IMG/VR virus record: IMGVR_UViG_3300023313_000006
Span: 11,324-75,323 of that record
Origin: a virus
Direction: 5' to 3' (one strand)
Length of the DNA: 64,000 nt
The number at the start of each line of letters is the position of its first letter. Position 1 is the first letter of the stretch. This document shows positions 3,846-56,400 of this stretch, in pieces. The notes below the pieces were generated by a model that was not told the DNA's origin, made no database searches, and saw only the letters and a list, made by a program, of their open reading frames with translations. The position numbers were made by a program, and so were the translations under genes.

Positions 3846-4298
3846 ATGGCATACAAAGGATTTTTCACACCCACAAATCCCGAAAAATGGATTTCGACAA
3901 CAAAAGGTCTGGGTGGTGGACGCATCCAATATCGCAGTTCGTATGAACGCAAATTCATGGGATGGGCCGACACATGCCCGGACGTGTTGAAAATTGCTTC
4001 GGAAGAAGTGGTCGTGCCCTATCGTTCACCACTAGATGGCAAGATTCATCGTTACTACGTCGATTTCTATATCATGCTACAATTACCGAATGGCGAAATC
4101 GTTGAAAAATTGATTGAAATCAAGCCAGCGAAAGAAACAAAAATGCCACGACAAAAGAAGAACCAAAAGCGTTACATCCAAGAATGTAAAACGTATGCGG
4201 TCAACCAAGCAAAATGGGAAGCGGCACGAAAAGTGGCGAAAAAGAACAACTGGGAATTTGTCATTATGACTGAAAAAGAGCTTGGGATTCGCCGCTAA
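3846..4298 (+). CDS. gp4: Head completion nuclease gp4
   Basis: MAYKGFFTPTNPEK, YRSSYE, HRYYVDF, IEIKP, VNQAKWEAA. Confidence 0.95.
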   Translation: MAYKGFFTPTNPEKWISTTKGLGGGRIQYRSSYERKFMGWADTCPDVLKIASEEVVVPYRSPLDGKIHRYYVDFYIMLQLPNGEIVEKLIEIKPAKETKMPRQKKNQKRYIQECKTYAVNQAKWEAARKVAKKNNWEFVIMTEKELGIRR

Positions 4299-5578: not shown

Positions 5579-6858
5579 AACGCTATATTCAGGGCGGAAT
5601 CAGTATATATTCGATGACACTAACTTCGGATGGTGGCAAATCCGTTGACATCACCAATTTGTTTGTCGAAATGTCAATCTATGAAGATATATTCTCTAAT
5701 GGCATTTCTGGTCATGTGAAGCTGGTCGATTCTTTTCATCTACCGGAAACGCTGCCAATCATAGCAGAAGAAACGTTGACTGTTTCGTTCAATTCAAACA
5801 AAGATAGCAAGTGGCAGTTCACCAAGAGCTTTAGAATCAACCGAATCGAAAAATATACGGTCGATGAAAACGAAAATCTATCAACTTATGTTCTTCAATT
5901 CGTTTCACCAATGTTTGAATTGAATCAAAAACTGCGGCTGAACATGAGCTTTGGTTCAGAACAAAAGGGAATGCTAGCAAGCGACATCGTGACAGAAGTT
6001 GCTACTAAGCACATGGGAATTCCGGCGAAAGAATTGAAGGTCGAAAAATCACGATTTGATCGACACGTCATTTGCGGCAACTGGACGCCATATCAGCTAT
6101 TTAATTTCTTGGCTCGAACAGATATATTGGACGCAGGTGCTGTTGAAAACAACAAAATGTCATCGTTTTTGTTCTTTGAGGACAGAGACGGCTTCAAATT
6201 TGTTTCGATTGCTTCAATGGTCGAAAACAAACTACATTCGGGCGAAGATTTGTTCGAAGCAATCAATTTTCGACCAAAGCCAGATCAGAACAAATCAAAA
6301 ACGATGCTGACTACAGAAAACCAAGTATTGTCGTATGATATTGTGTCGTGGCAGGATTCGTTGGACAACACGATTTCTGGACTTCATTCATCGCGCAACA
6401 TCTATCACGACATCATTAACAAGACGATCACTGTATCGGATTTGCTATACAAAGACGCATTCAATCAAATGACGCACGTTGACGACAAATTGGCTTATCC
6501 GCTTGAATCGAACAGAAAGACGATGCCAAAAGAATCGACTTTGGTTCTGCCGAGCGAATATCACTATGCTAATGATTTGAAATTGACCAGAAAGTGGAAG
6601 CAAGAACGAAACATTGCTATTCAGGAATTGAAAAACTACAACATCGTGGCCGTTGTGAATGGTAGCACTAGATATAAGGTGGGAATGGTTGTTGATTGTC
6701 ACAACATTCATTCCACCAGAAGAAAGCCAAACGACACCAACTATGATTATGAAAATCTGAACGGGAAATATGTAGTGACTAAAATCCGACACGATTTCAC
6801 GAAGCACAAATACGTTCAGGCTCTCAATCTAGCCAAAGGGAGTATGAAGCGGATATGA
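5575..6858 (+). CDS. Baseplate hub protein (gp27-like)
   Basis: Between gp53 and gp5; SIYEDIF...G...D, FLFFEDRDGFKF, GKYVVTKIRH. Confidence 0.7.
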   Translation: MKRYIQGGISIYSMTLTSDGGKSVDITNLFVEMSIYEDIFSNGISGHVKLVDSFHLPETLPIIAEETLTVSFNSNKDSKWQFTKSFRINRIEKYTVDENENLSTYVLQFVSPMFELNQKLRLNMSFGSEQKGMLASDIVTEVATKHMGIPAKELKVEKSRFDRHVICGNWTPYQLFNFLARTDILDAGAVENNKMSSFLFFEDRDGFKFVSIASMVENKLHSGEDLFEAINFRPKPDQNKSKTMLTTENQVLSYDIVSWQDSLDNTISGLHSSRNIYHDIINKTITVSDLLYKDAFNQMTHVDDKLAYPLESNRKTMPKESTLVLPSEYHYANDLKLTRKWKQERNIAIQELKNYNIVAVVNGSTRYKVGMVVDCHNIHSTRRKPNDTNYDYENLNGKYVVTKIRHDFTKHKYVQALNLAKGSMKRI

Positions 6859-7799
6859 TTAACTCAATGGGCATGTTTCCGTTCTTTTGGTATGGTGTGG
6901 TCGAAGATCGAAACGACCCGCTGAAATTGGGTCGCGTTCGTGTGCGCATTCTCGGTAAACATTCAAAAGAATTGAAAGAGAACATCAAAACGGGCGAAGG
7001 TGTGCCAGTGACATCGCTTCCTTGGGCGCATCCAGCAATGCCAATCACCAGCGCTAGCATGAATGGCATCGGCGAGACGCCGGTCGGACCGGTCGAGGGC
7101 ACATGGGTCATCGGAATTTCGCGCGACGGCGATGCCTGTCAAAACTTGGTGTATATGTTCACGTTGCCGGGCATTCCACAAACAGAGCCGGCGATGGAAG
7201 GCTTTAACGATACAGAAGAAACAATCAAAGCAGCAGATCGTCCGCATCCATTAGGCGAAAGCGGTTCAAAATATCCAAAGAAATCTCACTTGAAAGAAGC
7301 AGACACCAATCGTCTTGCTAGAAACGAAAAGATCGATCAAACAATCGTCAAGAAAAAACGCGACAGTGAAGATAAAAACGTCCATGTTGCGCACGGTGGC
7401 AGTTGGAATGAACCGACGACACCATATCAAGCAACCTATCCATTCAATCGCGTTTTTGAATCAGAAAGTGGTCACATCCACGAGATCGACGACACGCCCG
7501 GAGCAGAACGCTTACATGAATACCATAGAAGCGGCACGTTCAATGAAGTTCATCCAGACGGCACGAAAGTTGAAAAGATCGTCAAAGACAACTATGAAAT
7601 CATTTTAGGCAACGATAACATTCACGTCAAGGGGAATTGTAACATTTCCATCGATGGCGACGCGAAAGTTTACGTCAAGAACAACGCAGATATTGAAGTC
7701 GGTGGGAATTTGACAGAAACAGTTGCCGGTAACTATTCATTGACAGCCGAAGGTGTAGTGACAATCATCGGTCGACAAAAGATCGACCTGAACCCGTAA
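6855..7799 (+). CDS. gp5: Baseplate central spike gp5 (OB fold plus beta-helix, no lysozyme domain)
   Basis: GVVEDRNDPLKLGRVRVR, LPWA, YPFNRVFESESGH..EIDDTPGAERL..YHRSGTF. Confidence 0.95.
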   Translation: MINSMGMFPFFWYGVVEDRNDPLKLGRVRVRILGKHSKELKENIKTGEGVPVTSLPWAHPAMPITSASMNGIGETPVGPVEGTWVIGISRDGDACQNLVYMFTLPGIPQTEPAMEGFNDTEETIKAADRPHPLGESGSKYPKKSHLKEADTNRLARNEKIDQTIVKKKRDSEDKNVHVAHGGSWNEPTTPYQATYPFNRVFESESGHIHEIDDTPGAERLHEYHRSGTFNEVHPDGTKVEKIVKDNYEIILGNDNIHVKGNCNISIDGDAKVYVKNNADIEVGGNLTETVAGNYSLTAEGVVTIIGRQKIDLNP

Positions 7800-48751: not shown

Positions 48752-50233
48752 GTGTACACCCAAGAACTGAAAGATTTTTGCTTCGATACAAAAGACAAAT
48801 CAACAAACACGCTACATCAAAACAAGCGAATGATGTCACTTTTGCTTTCAGAAACTTCGTTCTTGAATCACCACAACCCAACATTGAGAGTTAGACGTGA
48901 TTTTGTTGTAAAAAATTCAAAATCAATCCCTAGTTGTTCATTTTGCGGCAACGAAACAGTGATGACGACAAGAAACGACAAATTCAAAAAATACTGTTCA
49001 TTAGATTGTGAAAGAAAAGCGAAAACGAAAACATGCGACAAAATCTTTGACAAGGAATGGTTGATCTATCAAAGAACAGAACTCAAAAAATCGAAAGATG
49101 ATTTGTCCAGAGAATTAAACGTTTCGTACAAAACAATCGACGAAGCATTGTCTAATTTTGACATCAACGACAACATTTGCTTAGTTGACAAAAGAATTCG
49201 TACTATTTTGACAAACAAAAAACGATTAGCAAGATTCTACAACAAGTTTTCGACGCACGAAATAGCAGACTTGTTTGGTGTGTCCGTTGGAACAGTCATC
49301 AAGCATTTGAAAAAACATGAAATCGAAATCAAACCACCGAATTATTGGCACAAAAGTTTCAAGAAACGAAGCAAAGGCGAAAAAGAATTGTTTGATTTCG
49401 TTAATTCTTTGACAAAAGCAAAGCATTCGGATAGAACGGTTTTGAATGGCAAAGAACTGGATGTCTATGTGCCATCGCTCGGTGTCGCATTTGAATTTAA
49501 TGGCATCTACTATCATTCAGAACGATTCATCGACAAAAACAGTCACTATGAAAAAACAAAGCAATGTCAGGAAAAAGGTGTGACGCTATATCACATTTGG
49601 GAAGATGATTGGACGAACAAACAAGCCATCTGGAAGTCGAGAATCAGATCAATTTTGGGGAAAACAGAACGAAAAATCTATGCTAGAGATTGTCGGGTCA
49701 AAGATATTTCATCGAAAGAGAAAAACGATTTTCTTGAACGAACCCATTTACAAGGGCGAGATTTCGCCAAGCACAAGTTGGGATTGTTCCACAATGACAA
49801 ATTGGTGGCCGTGATGACATTCAGCAAAGATCGATCGAACAAGAACGATCATGTTCTTTCAAGATTTTCATGCGAATTGAACGCGACCGTTGTTGGTGGG
49901 TTCTCGAAATTGCTAGCACACTTCAAGCGAAACAACGAAGGCAACATTGTCACCTATGCCGATTTGTCATATACGGACGGCAACGTTTACATTAAAAACG
50001 GATTTGTTGAATCCAAGCTCTACAAAAGCAATTACTGGTATGTGATCGATTCGAAGCGCGCCCACAAATCAAATTTCTCAAAATCAGCAATGAAAAAGAG
50101 ATTTCCAAATTTCGATTTCAAATCAAATACAGAAACCGAAATGGCACACGAGTTGGGTTATTTTAGACTATTCGGTGCTGGAATGAAAACGTTTTCTCTA
50201 AATAATCATCATGCTAGACTTTCTGAAATCTAA
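48752..50233 (+). CDS. Hef-like free-standing endonuclease (HTH/Zn, Vsr/PD-(D/E)XK-like, GNAT-like C-terminus)
   Basis: SKGEKELF, ELDVYVP...AFEFNGIYYH, HIWEDDW, KIYAR.C, HLQG, GGFSKLL, TYAD; candidate promoter at 48697-48724. Confidence 0.75.
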   Translation: MYTQELKDFCFDTKDKSTNTLHQNKRMMSLLLSETSFLNHHNPTLRVRRDFVVKNSKSIPSCSFCGNETVMTTRNDKFKKYCSLDCERKAKTKTCDKIFDKEWLIYQRTELKKSKDDLSRELNVSYKTIDEALSNFDINDNICLVDKRIRTILTNKKRLARFYNKFSTHEIADLFGVSVGTVIKHLKKHEIEIKPPNYWHKSFKKRSKGEKELFDFVNSLTKAKHSDRTVLNGKELDVYVPSLGVAFEFNGIYYHSERFIDKNSHYEKTKQCQEKGVTLYHIWEDDWTNKQAIWKSRIRSILGKTERKIYARDCRVKDISSKEKNDFLERTHLQGRDFAKHKLGLFHNDKLVAVMTFSKDRSNKNDHVLSRFSCELNATVVGGFSKLLAHFKRNNEGNIVTYADLSYTDGNVYIKNGFVESKLYKSNYWYVIDSKRAHKSNFSKSAMKKRFPNFDFKSNTETEMAHELGYFRLFGAGMKTFSLNNHHARLSEI

Positions 50234-52539: not shown

Positions 52540-53013
52540 TCAAACGCTCACTGAAAAGTCTTGATAGTAAAATGTGACCGATGCGGTCAACACACGATTG
52601 TCGCCGACCGATGTGAATTGAACTTCGCTCAACACCGACGGGAACATTCCAACAAAAACGAATGTCATCAGCGGCGTCGAATTGTTCGATAGAATCGTCA
52701 ATGAACCATCGCTCAACAAATCGCGTCGATTAGCAGCGCCAGCATTCCCCGTTCCCATGCTTCGCATCCAGTTGAAGATGTCAAGATATGATTTCAAATC
52801 TTCGTCGATGGCGAAAGTGACGATCATTGGGTCGAACGTCATCTTTTCGGACGGGAATGGAATGTCATTGAATGTGTTGGGTTGAACAACAGCACCAACA
52901 CTAACCGTTGGCAGTGTCGCCTCAATGATTTGAAAATTGAAGTGCGGACTTTTCTCGATGGTGAGAAGATAGTTTGACGAATAAGCGTCGTTGGTTGTGA
53001 ATGTTGTAGCCAT
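52540..53013 (-). CDS. gp3: Tail completion / tube terminator gp3
   Basis: P.FNF......LP, FDP..V.F.IDEDL..Y..I..WM, SD..L.IL.N, FP..L. Confidence 0.9.
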   Translation of the reverse strand: MATTFTTNDAYSSNYLLTIEKSPHFNFQIIEATLPTVSVGAVVQPNTFNDIPFPSEKMTFDPMIVTFAIDEDLKSYLDIFNWMRSMGTGNAGAANRRDLLSDGSLTILSNNSTPLMTFVFVGMFPSVLSEVQFTSVGDNRVLTASVTFYYQDFSVSV

Positions 53014-53051
53014 GATTCTATTTAGTTGGTTGACGAGAGACTTAGAAGCCG

Positions 53052-53129
53052 TAAAATCGATTATATGGCGTTTTAGATTGTCTGAAAGGGGTAAGCATAT
53101 CCAACAACGTTAAAATGAATCCTAGCGCA
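53052..53129. repeat. 78-bp three-box element, copy 1
   Basis: Ungapped match to 54775-54852. Confidence 0.85.
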
Positions 53130-53139
53130 AATATGGACG

Positions 53140-53610
53140 TTTGACGACGATGACGGAACGATGAAACGAGATCGATTGAATGGTTGAACGAGAAAATTGA
53201 TTTGAATGGTTGGAAGAAGATCAGCGATGGAATGGCGAAAAGAAAATCGATTGAATGATGACGATTGCTGATCGTTGATTGTTGAATGAAAGATGAGTTG
53301 AAGAAGAACATTGAATGAAATCGATTTGAAGAAGATAATTGAATGATGACCAAAAAGAGAATTGATTGCTGATCGTTGATTGTTGAATGAAAGATGAGTT
53401 GAAGAAGATCGATTGAATGATGTGATTGTTGTCTATCGATAATCAATTCAGTTAGCTATTGCTGTAATCTATTCAGTTAGCTATTGCTGTAATCATCTAT
53501 TCAATCAATGCTGTAATCATCTATTCAGTTATCTGTAGTTGTTCTTGTTGTTATCTGTTGTTCTATCTGTTGTCTATTTCTCTTTCTTTTTCCCATAATC
53601 ATCTTTAATC
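53140..53610. repeat. Strand-skewed low-complexity repeat tract, putative replication origin
   Basis: 45-bp perfect direct repeat at 53263-53307 and 53364-53408; 24-bp repeat at 53446-53469 and 53471-53494; purine-to-pyrimidine switch near 53440. Confidence 0.65.
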
Positions 53611-53634
53611 ATTTCAAAATGCATGCAGGCTGCC

Positions 53635-53744
53635 GCCTGCGGAGGTCGGAGAACGTCAACTACTCACGAAGCACTGAAAAACAAGGGACAAAAAAGCCCC
53701 TTTTCAGCCCGTGAGTGGTGAACATTCTCCGACCTCCGCAGGCG
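53635..53744. other. Long GC-rich hairpin
   Basis: CGCCTGCGGAGGTCGGAGAA pairs with TTCTCCGACCTCCGCAGGCG (20 bp perfect), with further internal stems. Confidence 0.9.
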
Positions 53745-54583
53745 CTCTTGGTAAATTAACCAATAGAACAAAAAATGTTCCGTCTGCGTTTAGGCCGTGT
53801 TCACGCCATCGTATGCTTTTCAAGAGCAGGGCATACGATTAGAGAGATTCCTTACCATCCGCTGCTGTCGGACGGGATACCACCCCGTTCTCTCTACCCT
53901 ATTTGCATGTTGCCAACAAATCGACGAGCGATTTGCGGTGTACGATAGTAATGGTGTTGTCCAATCACCATGAAGGTCAGATCGATTTCCGCCCCAACCT
54001 TCTTTTCCTACCTAAGCGATGACACCATAGCAAAACAGGACGTGTATTTTTCGAGTTGCTATTGTTTTACAGTGTCTCGCCGTTGCCGAACACGCGGCCA
54101 TCGTTTCGTGACGTGATTCTATGCTATTCGTTTTCGTCTAATGAAGCTATTTGTCGTTTCTTGCTTTTCGTGCCTATGGTCTATTGCGACTCTTTGCGGC
54201 TAATTTCGTTGCTAATTTTTTTGACACTTCATTCTTGCGACTATTTTCATGCTGTCACTTTGTTGTCACTAACGACGTTACAACAATTCAATAAAGCCGT
54301 ACTGGGGTTGCCGCCTTTGGTATCGCACTTCCGTTAAGCGGCTTGCCAATTCTTCGGGGGACGTAGTGCTATCAAAACCCTGATTGCGGAATGTGTCCAT
54401 TCAGCATGATCGTTCACTTCATGCCCAAACGCAATCCTGCTTCCGAAGTTTATGCTTCAACAATCATCGAATCAACTTTGCCCAACAATCCATCTTAGAT
54501 GCGCTCTTGCTGGCACGCCGTATCATCTATGTTTCCACAAAGGCTCGAAATTCAAATGAACACCAAATGAATAACACGCCTTG
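53635..54583 (-). ncRNA. Putative large structured non-coding RNA (family not recognised)
   Basis: No credible ORF; downstream of two perfect promoters; more than 12 helices including long-range closures; GCAA tetraloops on the minus strand. The 3' end is uncertain. Confidence 0.65.
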
Positions 54584-54589
54584 TAGCGA

Positions 54590-54618
54590 ATTATAGCACA
54601 AAGAAAATACCGTGTCAA
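54590..54618 (-). promoter_or_regulatory. Perfect sigma70 promoter P1 (leftward)
   Basis: TTGACA (54618-54613), 17 nt, TATAAT (54595-54590). Confidence 0.9.
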
Positions 54619-54727
54619 GCACTTTTTTTCGATGCGCTAAAAATCAGCTACAGTTCTACTTAGGTTTTTTTTGAAATCAAATTCAACCCCTGATTTCAAA
54701 ATCGTGTCAAATTGACACACGCGACAA

Positions 54728-54756
54728 ATTATAGCGCGGTTGATTCCTCTTGTCAA
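54728..54756 (-). promoter_or_regulatory. Perfect sigma70 promoter P2 (leftward)
   Basis: TTGACA (54756-54751), 17 nt, TATAAT (54733-54728); shares about 30 bp of upstream sequence with P1. Confidence 0.9.
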
Positions 54757-54774
54757 GCACTTTTTTCGACGCGC

Positions 54775-54852
54775 TAAAATCGATTCTATGGCGTTTTAAT
54801 TTCTTGGCAGTGGGTAGGCATAGGCAAAGCCATTAAAATCAATTCTAGCGCA
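54775..54852. repeat. 78-bp three-box element, copy 2
   Basis: Ungapped match to 53052-53129. Confidence 0.85.
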
Positions 54853-54888
54853 CTTTTCGGCACCAGAACAGCATGAAAAAGATTTTGC

Positions 54889-54917
54889 TTGACAAATTCA
54901 ACCCGAGCATATATAAT
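54889..54917 (+). promoter_or_regulatory. Perfect sigma70 promoter for dda (leaderless)
   Basis: TTGACA-17 nt-TATAAT, with ATG at 54925. Confidence 0.9.
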
Positions 54918-54924
54918 TCTCGCC

Positions 54925-56400
54925 ATGAAAAAAGAAATCATCATCACGCCGCTCAATGGCGAAGCAGTGCGCAAAGCAAAACAGCATATCGGCAAGACGT
55001 TTGATCGTTTTGATTTTGTCTGTCGTCCCGGTTTCATTGATATTGACGGTATCGGTAGGTGTAAGTGGAACGCACCGGCCAATGAAATCAGTAACATCAA
55101 TTCGGTTCGTTTGGTCACCAAAAACAATCGATTCGTTTTGTTGATCTCCGCCGAATCGAACGACAAGAAAATCAACAACGAAAAATACTCACCACCAAAA
55201 CCGACGAAGGAACAACAAGCTGTCATTGATTCTGTTTGCGATTTGGTTGCTGTCGGGCAGCATTGTTGTATCGATGCTCCCGCTGGTACGGGTAAAACAT
55301 TCATGCTTCGTTTTTTGATTAACGCGATTGAAGGCAAAGCCAATCGCAGAGTTAGTGTTTGTTCGACCACACACAAATCAATAGCAGTCATCGAAAAAAA
55401 CATTGGTTTCAAAGACGTTTTCACCATTCATTCATTGCTTGGCGTGAAGCCCGTCATTGATTATGAAACGGGAAAAGAAAAATATACGATTGACACATCG
55501 ATACCCGCGAAGATTCGTGCTGGCGAAGTTGTTATTTGTGATGAATCATCGATGATTAACGCTGAATTGCTTGAATTGATCGTCGAATGTATCAACGAGT
55601 TGAAGTGCGTTTTTGTTTTCATTGGTGATTCAAAGCAGTTGCCGCCAGTGAATGAAGATATTGCTATGGCTCTGAACATCCCGAACAAATTTACTTTGTC
55701 AAAGATTGTTCGTCACGATAATTCGATTGTTGACGCGTCTGTTTACATGCGAGAATGTATTGATAGTGGTGTCGTTCCATCGGTCGAAGTCTTTGAACAA
55801 TATGAAGATATTGAAATCATCCGCGACGAACGAAAATTCAATTCACTGTTCTTTGACATGGTTGAACATCAAAAATCGGTCTTGTTTGTTGCTTGGACGA
55901 ACAGACGTGTCGATGCTCATGCTCGCGCGACGAGAAAGCATTTGGGTTATCCAGAAGATAATTTTGTCCGTGGTGAAGTGATTGTCTTGAATGCTCCGGT
56001 TGTTGTTGGTGGCAATATCAAAGCACAAAACAATTCGGTTCACGTCATCAAGAATGTCAAAGACGTTGTTATCGAAGATGTGCCAATGAAAGCGGTGACG
56101 ACTTATGAAGGATTGAAATTCAACACCGCTGTTGACAACACGCTGATCGAAAGCAAATTGTCTAGTTTGGCGAATGCTGCTAGAAAGAATCCGATCACTG
56201 GATGGAAGAAATACTACCGATTCAAAGAAACGTGCGTGCCTATATCATTTCACCATTCGTGTACCGTTCATAAATCGCAAGGTTCGACGGTCGAAAGCGT
56301 TTTTGTTGACTATAACAATATAGCACAAGCCGACATTGCTTCAAAGTTGCTCTATGTAGCAATCACGCGCGCGTCAAAGCGAGTTTACATTCTTGCTTGA
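54925..56400 (+). CDS. dda: Dda/RecD-like SF1B helicase
   Basis: APAGTGKT, TIHSLL, DESSM, GD.KQLPPV, TVHKSQGST, LYVAITRA. The track's start at 54889 is the -35 box. Confidence 0.9.
   Translation: MKKEIIITPLNGEAVRKAKQHIGKTFDRFDFVCRPGFIDIDGIGRCKWNAPANEISNINSVRLVTKNNRFVLLISAESNDKKINNEKYSPPKPTKEQQAVIDSVCDLVAVGQHCCIDAPAGTGKTFMLRFLINAIEGKANRRVSVCSTTHKSIAVIEKNIGFKDVFTIHSLLGVKPVIDYETGKEKYTIDTSIPAKIRAGEVVICDESSMINAELLELIVECINELKCVFVFIGDSKQLPPVNEDIAMALNIPNKFTLSKIVRHDNSIVDASVYMRECIDSGVVPSVEVFEQYEDIEIIRDERKFNSLFFDMVEHQKSVLFVAWTNRRVDAHARATRKHLGYPEDNFVRGEVIVLNAPVVVGGNIKAQNNSVHVIKNVKDVVIEDVPMKAVTTYEGLKFNTAVDNTLIESKLSSLANAARKNPITGWKKYYRFKETCVPISFHHSCTVHKSQGSTVESVFVDYNNIAQADIASKLLYVAITRASKRVYILA

Follow-up and report, generated by a model that had tools for sequence, protein, structure and literature searches.

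A putative early non-coding RNA of a T4-like phage with a block resembling the gene 32 leader

Post-transcriptional autoregulation of replication proteins is classically illustrated by the T4-type phages. The leader between genes 59 and 32 serves in T4 and RB69 as the translational operator of gp32, the phage single-strand-DNA-binding protein (SSB); a folded element comes first in it, and after that an unstructured tract with repeats, longer than 40 nt (PMC535899). gp32 nucleates on the folded element, spreads cooperatively over the tract and blocks its own translation; these operators drift between phages (PMC535899). Here we analyze a window of 64,000 nt, bases 11324-75323 of the 75.3-kb IMG/VR contig IMGVR_UViG_3300023313_000006, which comes from an uncultured phage of a microbial-mat metagenome (~42% genome completeness by CheckV). 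Its subject is a unit predicted to be transcribed from the minus strand, placed at 53635-54583 by a preliminary description, which we find to carry a block resembling this phage's own gene 32 leader.

We consider it probable that the unit is a real, conserved, early non-coding RNA gene. It lacks coding capacity, is preceded by early-type promoters and has one homologue, with which it shares conserved structures; on sequence grounds, its A-rich block and the phage's own gene 59-32 leader are paralogues. More tentatively, the RNA may be a decoy, or sponge, for the phage SSB, tuning gp32 autoregulation or storing gp32. To our knowledge, no non-coding RNA has been described within the circuit by which T4-type phages autoregulate replication proteins, and we know of no decoy of the gp32 translational operator. 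If the decoy reading is true, the unit would supply the first case in which an RNA mimics the autoregulatory operator of a phage replication protein. Should the decoy idea fail, the unit would still represent a new family of phage RNAs with a defined architecture.

The A-rich block and the gene 32 leader

When the region was searched against the whole contig, it returned a 36-nt match at G000:C1:10099-10136 (E = 4e-6; G000:C1 marks coordinates on the whole contig, and sites quoted in them fall outside the window). The matched site, G000:C1:10102-10136, is the gap between the genes for a gp59-like helicase loader and a gp32-like SSB, the latter at G000:C1:10156-11016, and the matched leader segment ends ~20 nt 5' of the gene 32 Shine-Dalgarno. 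Its counterpart in the unit is the A-rich platform (Table 1). Core identity between block and leader is 88.6% over 36 columns, with a local alignment score of 51; dinucleotide shuffles score 20 +/- 3, and none of 300 reach either 51 or the 59 obtained in the second phage described below. The similarity continues across the positions of the Shine-Dalgarno and the AUG, both of which are lost in the RNA copy. Because the RNA block does not lie upstream of gene 32, as its paralogue does, it is to be read as a copy of the leader and not as the operator itself.

The same relationship is seen in a second phage. L041, a 6.9-kb contig whose UvsY is 61% identical, carries the only homologue of the unit among the relatives that we found, in 1.1 kb free of open reading frames (ORFs) upstream of its gp19-like gene. 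A search for gp32 relatives gave L085, a contig from the same metagenome, whose gene 32 leader is a near base-for-base match to the L041 RNA block (core identity 85.7% over 36 columns, score 59). By comparison, the four cross-phage pairs have core identities of 60-64% (36 columns), and the two tested score 24-25, a value that 18-38 of 300 shuffles reach and that is not significant. The block thus stays matched to the leader within each of the two phages while both diverge between them, a pattern most simply explained by a shared trans-acting factor. A leader copy matched in this way makes an RNA decoy for the SSB a directly testable hypothesis.

The platform is predicted to be unstructured in both phages (z >= 0 for 54110-54300 and for L041 450-530), and 54110-54300, with z > 0, folds less than its shuffles do. 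The word WUAGV, defined after the sequences had been seen, occurs at 6.2 per 100 nt in the platform and at 5-7 in both RNA blocks and both leaders, against ~1 in the rest of the RNA and 0.45 over the contig. By eye, all four copies allow nested 3-bp G+C stems, too short for an energy test, in which GCC...GGC encloses a 3-bp hairpin whose loop has 6 nt; drawn in this way, the inner 3-bp stem of our RNA copy survives by a double change from C-G to U-A. The records of relatives that lack the RNA yielded no second copy of the gene 32 leader. A reading of the shared block as a MotA box or sigma-70 promoter was rejected by eye, as the spacings do not fit.

In the gene 32 leaders of the clade (G000:C1:10102-10155; L084, L085, L086-L089, L142), a UAGC(A/C)A box and a small G+C hairpin recur, and a run rich in A precedes the ribosome site. 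This shared layout is a candidate gp32 operator architecture, unlike the pseudoknot type of T4.

Architecture of the unit and its homologue

The preliminary description called the unit a putative non-coding RNA of an unrecognised family; the stretch is indeed non-coding and matches no catalogued family. On the transcribed strand of 53635-54583 the longest ORF has 40 aa, nothing noteworthy appears in any frame, and one frame of 53014-54924 contains 35 stops; tblastx found no peptide common to the unit and its L041 homologue. An apparent ORF of 134 aa at 53042-53446 is an artefact, with a TTG start and a translation of low-complexity repeat DNA. Comparison of the whole window with Rfam 15 gave zero matches at gathering score, including GOLLD, ROOL, RNase P, tmRNA, group I/II introns, 6S and HEARO/omega, and at E<=10 the stretch 53000-55000 returned just chance-level miRNA and snoRNA noise on a hairpin. 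Likewise, L041 matched no Rfam family, ARAGORN found no tRNA or tmRNA in the unit, and blastn of the region against GenBank phages gave zero matches. These results agree with the earlier statement that signatures of RNase P, tmRNA and group I/II introns are lacking. The likeness to GOLLD or ROOL that had been suggested is one of size only, with no match in sequence or structure.

Promoters had also been claimed on the minus strand, and two of them, in tandem and each a perfect 12/12 consensus, do point into the unit (Table 1). The UP-like and -35 segment of P2 repeats that of P1, and the UP and -35 segment of P1 aligns with L041 131-158, where the promoter is TTGACA-17-TAGAGT. A perfect plus-strand promoter at 54889-54917 serves dda, further perfect plus-strand copies lie at 56397 and 62461, and two more perfect promoters are found upstream of the window. 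The contig total is seven perfect 12/12 sigma-70 promoters, against ~0.08 expected from base composition by our own estimate, so that those of the unit are almost certainly real early promoters. The seven also imply a host polymerase with canonical TTGACA/TATAAT preference, which speaks against a Bacteroidota host.

Table 1. Features of the unit and its promoters, in window coordinates
Feature	Positions	Strand	Description
Early promoter P2 (upstream)	54728..54756	-	TTGACA-17-TATAAT, 12/12; start predicted near 54721
Early promoter P1 (downstream)	54590..54618	-	TTGACA-17-TATAAT with TG extension, 12/12; start predicted near 54583
Conserved 5' hairpin	54482..54513	-	7-bp outer stem, invariant internal loop GAGCG/GA, invariant apical CAUC-UNA-GAUG
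Second domain of the preliminary description	54352..54448	-	Not supported as conserved or unusually stable
Unstructured A-rich platform, ~120 nt	54100..54228	-	Core 54203-54171; best-conserved sequence stretch of the unit
Domain 1	53790..54102	-	Hairpin series and three-way junction; H2-H5 and H7-H10 (~54081-53805) supported comparatively
Terminal rod hairpin	53634..53744	-	47 pairs, 111 nt; -80 kcal/mol sense vs -71 antisense
Second small terminator-like hairpin, rod foot	53625..53640	-	Terminator prediction

The order of elements is collinear in the two phages, running from promoter through 5' hairpin, A-rich block and multi-hairpin domain to the terminal rod, on our minus strand and on the plus strand of L041. 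The 5' hairpin aligns ungapped with L041 241-272, in an alignment that was not fitted to structure, and all 11 of its pairs are kept in both. In its outer stem (CCAGCAA/UUGUUGG here, CACAAUA/UAUUGUG in L041), four of the seven pairs are changed on both sides and one on one side. Situated 55-100 nt past the predicted start site, this hairpin is probably a recognition site. Among viral contigs the motif was matched in L041 only; 39 metagenome matches all look like chance, in unrelated sequence, and no second copy was found in any locus gathered.

A first domain of ~300 nt had been proposed. Its hairpins are kept in L041 through compensatory changes, but the long-range helix said to close it, at 53793-802/54088-099 (H1, 54099-54085 with 53803-53790), is unsupported and missing from L041. 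R1, a covariance model built from our sequence alone with its centroid fold, was run with filters off and matched L041 542-812(+) with 16 bits and E = 2e-4, on the expected strand and between the A-rich block and the rod; its E-values are rough, the calibration having been shortened, and default filters miss the match. In 100 kb of phage sequence used as a control, the best R1 score is 9 bits. R2, a sequence-only model of the same stretch, finds nothing at L041 542-812, so the R1 score stems from the pairing terms. In the R1-fitted alignment, which by its construction is biased towards structure, 27 of 81 pairs are changed on both sides and 94% of cells are paired, against ~40% when partners are slid. 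As an independent check, the minimum-free-energy fold of L041 itself has 32 of the 63 mapped pairs, including all or most of H2, H5, H7, H9 and H10. MAFFT with RNAalifold mis-aligned the two RNAs outside the anchor blocks.

The terminal rod is kept in structure and not in sequence. Its L041 counterpart, at 878-981 (104 nt), has a different stem sequence, a z of about -10 and energies of -60 (sense) vs -55 kcal/mol (antisense); the promoter-sense strand is the stabler one in both phages. At the tip of the rod (~53702-53676), an intrinsic-terminator-like hairpin followed by a U run lies inside the longer duplex, and this is the same in both phages.

All 14 helices listed in the preliminary description are perfect Watson-Crick complements, and GGCAAC is present on the minus strand at both sites where it had been read as a tetraloop; it forms a closed tetraloop in no predicted fold, and its positions are not kept in L041. 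Stems of at least 6 bp within 120 nt are at chance level (20, against 17.4 +/- 4.5 in dinucleotide shuffles). Those of at least 7 bp are in modest excess, 9 against 4.1 +/- 2.2 with 1 of 60 shuffles having as many, and those of at least 8 and at least 9 bp are at shuffle expectation. The interval as a whole does beat its shuffles (z = -4.5 on the minus strand, -11.3 on the plus) because of the rod, which was not among the helices listed; nearly all the gain comes from it, and the remainder behaves like shuffled sequence. The second domain, 54226-54470, is not unusually stable (z = -0.30, with 71 of 200 shuffles equally good) and is not detectably conserved, its model R3 scoring 0.9 bits at the expected place in L041. 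To call the whole 0.95 kb highly structured was an overstatement; about a third is supported.

Most of the unit cannot be aligned with L041, and this, together with an overall fold energy resembling that of shuffled sequence, would suit non-functional filler: either a duplicate of the gene 59-32 region that has decayed, or what is left of a cassette between two 88-bp promoter-associated repeats, transcribed only by way of the flanking early promoters. Such repeats, 75% identical, do bracket the unit and have more copies elsewhere, and the slot is variable, being occupied by an IS607-like element in the relative L006. However, four or five blocks are collinear in the two phages, two stems covary and the helices of domain 1 are kept. 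With flanking proteins ~60% identical, neutral DNA should have been randomised, yet these blocks persist. The ORF-free state and the length are also kept in both phages, and L041 has the unit without the 88-bp repeats. We regard filler as very unlikely, the least probable of the explanations weighed here.

Copies of the 88-bp element stand at 53042-53129, 54765-54852 and G000:C1:8301-8383, are 75-92% identical and lie beside consensus early promoters. Further copies occur in the source run in other contexts, each followed by TTGACA. No clear stem-loop terminator was found within the element.

The locus and the possible role of the RNA

The window has a gene content of the T4-like phage type, and the closest cultured relatives are T4-like cyanophages (gp47 identity 37-39%). 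The minus-strand genes left of the unit encode a UvsW-like helicase, UvsY and a gp19-like tail-tube protein; those on its right run on the plus strand and encode a Dda-like helicase, the late sigma factor gp55 and gp47/gp46. The unit is placed at the point where transcription diverges, within a gap of ~1.9 kb without genes (53014 to ~54888). A 493-aa HNH/homing-endonuclease-like gene at 48752-50233 (+) comes directly before the switch in gene direction. Relatives of the phage are few: its Dda protein has just four homologues above 40% identity among 5.8 billion proteins. Our relatives are five related contigs obtained from IMG/VR searches with Dda and UvsY alignments; a widened UvsY alignment returned the same five loci, and a single-protein Dda search of IMG/VR found none.

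In L006 (IMGVR_UViG_3300003873_000004) the order is the same: helicase, uvsY, gp19-like gene, slot and dda. Instead of the unit, its slot, at 5590-7369, holds two genes, whose products are a serine resolvase of 189 aa and a TnpB/Cas12f-like protein of 405 aa; judged by these genes, the insert is an IS607-like element in a T4-like phage. A decayed-gene origin of the unit was rejected, as the resolvase and TnpB of L006 leave no remnant in our region, and a TnpB family search of the contig was empty. In L042 and L043 the genes upstream of the gp19-like one are gp22 and gp23, and the unit is lacking; the sequence of L040 stops 160 bp upstream of the gp19-like gene.

The unit and the genes downstream of it share an orientation, and no sigma-70-like promoter is found between the rod and the next of them. 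This raises the question of whether the RNA could be a cis-acting leader for the gp19-like, uvsY and helicase genes, in which the 5' hairpin would act in a nut- or put-like manner and the rod would be a terminator of the lambda tI/sib kind, its read-through duplex being cut by RNase III. The conserved hairpin shortly after the start site and the terminator-like tip within a longer duplex in both phages would fit such a scheme. The gp19-like gene, however, has its own late-type motif, CTAAATA, 12-13 nt 5' of the start codon and conserved in four related phages, so the RNA need not be its leader. L006, L042 and L043 express the same genes without the unit, and 0.8-0.95 kb with a multi-hairpin domain and a gene 32 leader copy far exceeds what such control needs. 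A cis-acting leader therefore seems to us improbable.

In our phage the CTAAATA motif of the gp19-like gene lies at 53019-53025 (-), and others are found at 4295, 18151 and 29401, among others (+), before several structural genes. It is probably the clade's late promoter, the counterpart of T4 TATAAATA; transcripts from it would have next to no leader.

In T4, a locus of this kind, with uvsY, uvsW, dda and divergent transcription, is tied to replication origins. An RNA-primed origin, in which a persistent RNA-DNA hybrid would prime the leading strand as at T4 oriE/ori(uvsY), the folds would shape a pre-primer in the manner of ColE1 RNA II and the repeats at 53140-53610 would serve as iterons, ranks second after a non-coding RNA in our assessment, though we think it unlikely. 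The unit sits exactly at the divergence, beside uvsY, the UvsW-like helicase gene and dda, and has early-type promoters; beyond the rod come direct repeats of 21-45 bp, and a gp32-binding platform would suit an origin. In T4, oriE requires an early promoter and contains direct repeats, and oriE, oriF and oriG lie at divergence points; UvsW unwinds origin R-loops, and dda mutations affect oriE most (PMC3016281).

The requirements of the T4 R-loop origins are nevertheless different: ~100 bp, made up of a promoter and an A+T-rich unwinding element, with no specific sequence (PMC3016281), as against 0.8-0.95 kb with conserved hairpins here. The first ~130-134 nt of the transcript have the contig average of 42% G+C, and so are not an unwinding element, and some ordinary genes match or exceed the RNA in purine content and G/C skew. 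Where oriF and oriG have a MotA-box middle promoter with an A+T-rich element, the promoters here are full sigma-70 promoters with a -35 hexamer. As at oriE, early promoters are present; the repeats at 53140-53610 are irregularly spaced and lacking in L041, whose rod sits 160 nt from the next gene. L006, moreover, does without the unit.

The repeat field left of the rod consists of five copies of 21 nt, a perfect pair of 45 bp spaced 101 bp apart, and tandem units of 25 nt and 22 nt, and strand composition flips within it, near 53440. A reading of 53630-53014 as one large inverted repeat was rejected (-91 kcal/mol for 617 nt).

For the early non-coding RNA that we favor, the following course can be proposed. 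Host RNA polymerase would start at the two tandem sigma-70 promoters on the minus strand and make a transcript of ~0.9 kb from P1 or ~1.05 kb from P2, with no protein made; transcription would stop at the rod, or the RNA would be processed there. The RNA would be modular, comprising the 5' hairpin, a poorly conserved spacer (the former 'domain 2'), the ~120-nt platform, a ~280-nt domain of hairpins and a three-way junction, and the rod. As a gene 32 leader copy without Shine-Dalgarno and AUG, the platform would be untranslatable, and RNA and leader would share one binding factor, most probably gp32. The RNA might then act as an early decoy or reservoir that sets the amount of gp32; alternatively, it might borrow the processing or stability properties of the leader. 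In the decoy variant, the RNA would be abundant and early, would co-evolve with the operator and would act before replication begins, the folded 3' domain and the rod giving it stability. Transcription, the 3' end, gp32 binding and a physiological role are what we infer for this putative gp32-leader-mimic RNA.

Several observations weigh against this interpretation. No transcript was seen in the sample's sole metatranscriptome, which is tiny (4 million letters) and gave zero matches. Among relatives in which the slot is assembled, the closest, L006, has no such unit, so that the RNA is dispensable for the clade. With a single homologue, covariation rests on two sequences, and that of domain 1 comes from the structure-fitted alignment. 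Once the rod is removed, 53745-54583 (839 nt) has z = -0.47 on the minus strand and -1.66 on the plus, and domain 1 alone, at about -2.1 to -2.5, has weak thermodynamic support. L041 and L085 are separate contigs of one metagenome, assigned to the same phage by deduction, and WUAGV was picked post hoc. Gene conversion without shared function could maintain the agreement of block and leader within a phage, and the shared element could be an RNase E site, a stabiliser or another signal and not a gp32 site.

Comparison with known systems

The lambda tI/sib retroregulator is an intrinsic terminator embedded in a longer hairpin that is complete only in read-through transcripts. The rod likewise buries a terminator-like hairpin in a longer duplex; unlike tI/sib, it closes a putative non-coding RNA and does not follow a gene. 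With GOLLD (RF01998) and ROOL (RF03087) the unit has in common that it is a candidate for a large, phage-borne non-coding RNA of 0.8-1 kb with several hairpin domains. It differs from them in being demonstrably folded over about a third of its length and in being known from two contigs only.

The likeness to T4 oriE and oriF/ori(uvsY) lies in a promoter-driven untranslated transcript at a divergence beside uvsY, uvsW and dda, with early-type promoters as at oriE; a long structured RNA also recalls the ColE1 RNA II pre-primer. The T4 R-loop origins, however, require no specific structure, and here no A+T-rich element follows the promoter and the repeats are unconserved. Promoter-early stem-loop (PeSL) cassettes of T4-type phages (PMC2839356, PMC4122927) resemble the locus in that repeated promoter-associated elements of ~88 bp bracket the unit in a variable slot. 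They differ in that they carry small ORFs, of which the unit has none, and in that the RNA occurs in L041 without the repeats.

Compared with the gp32 operator of T4 and RB69 (PMC535899), the platform lies in a putative non-coding RNA 55 kb from gene 32 and lacks the two translation start signals. A pseudoknot of the T4 type is not evident, only the nested 3-bp stems. Common to the two is an A-rich tract, unstructured over more than 40 nt and bearing a repeated word, WUAGV here and UUAAA/UAAA in T4, next to which a small G+C-rich folded element would lie here as well; the platform is, moreover, a paralogue of this phage's own 59-32 leader.

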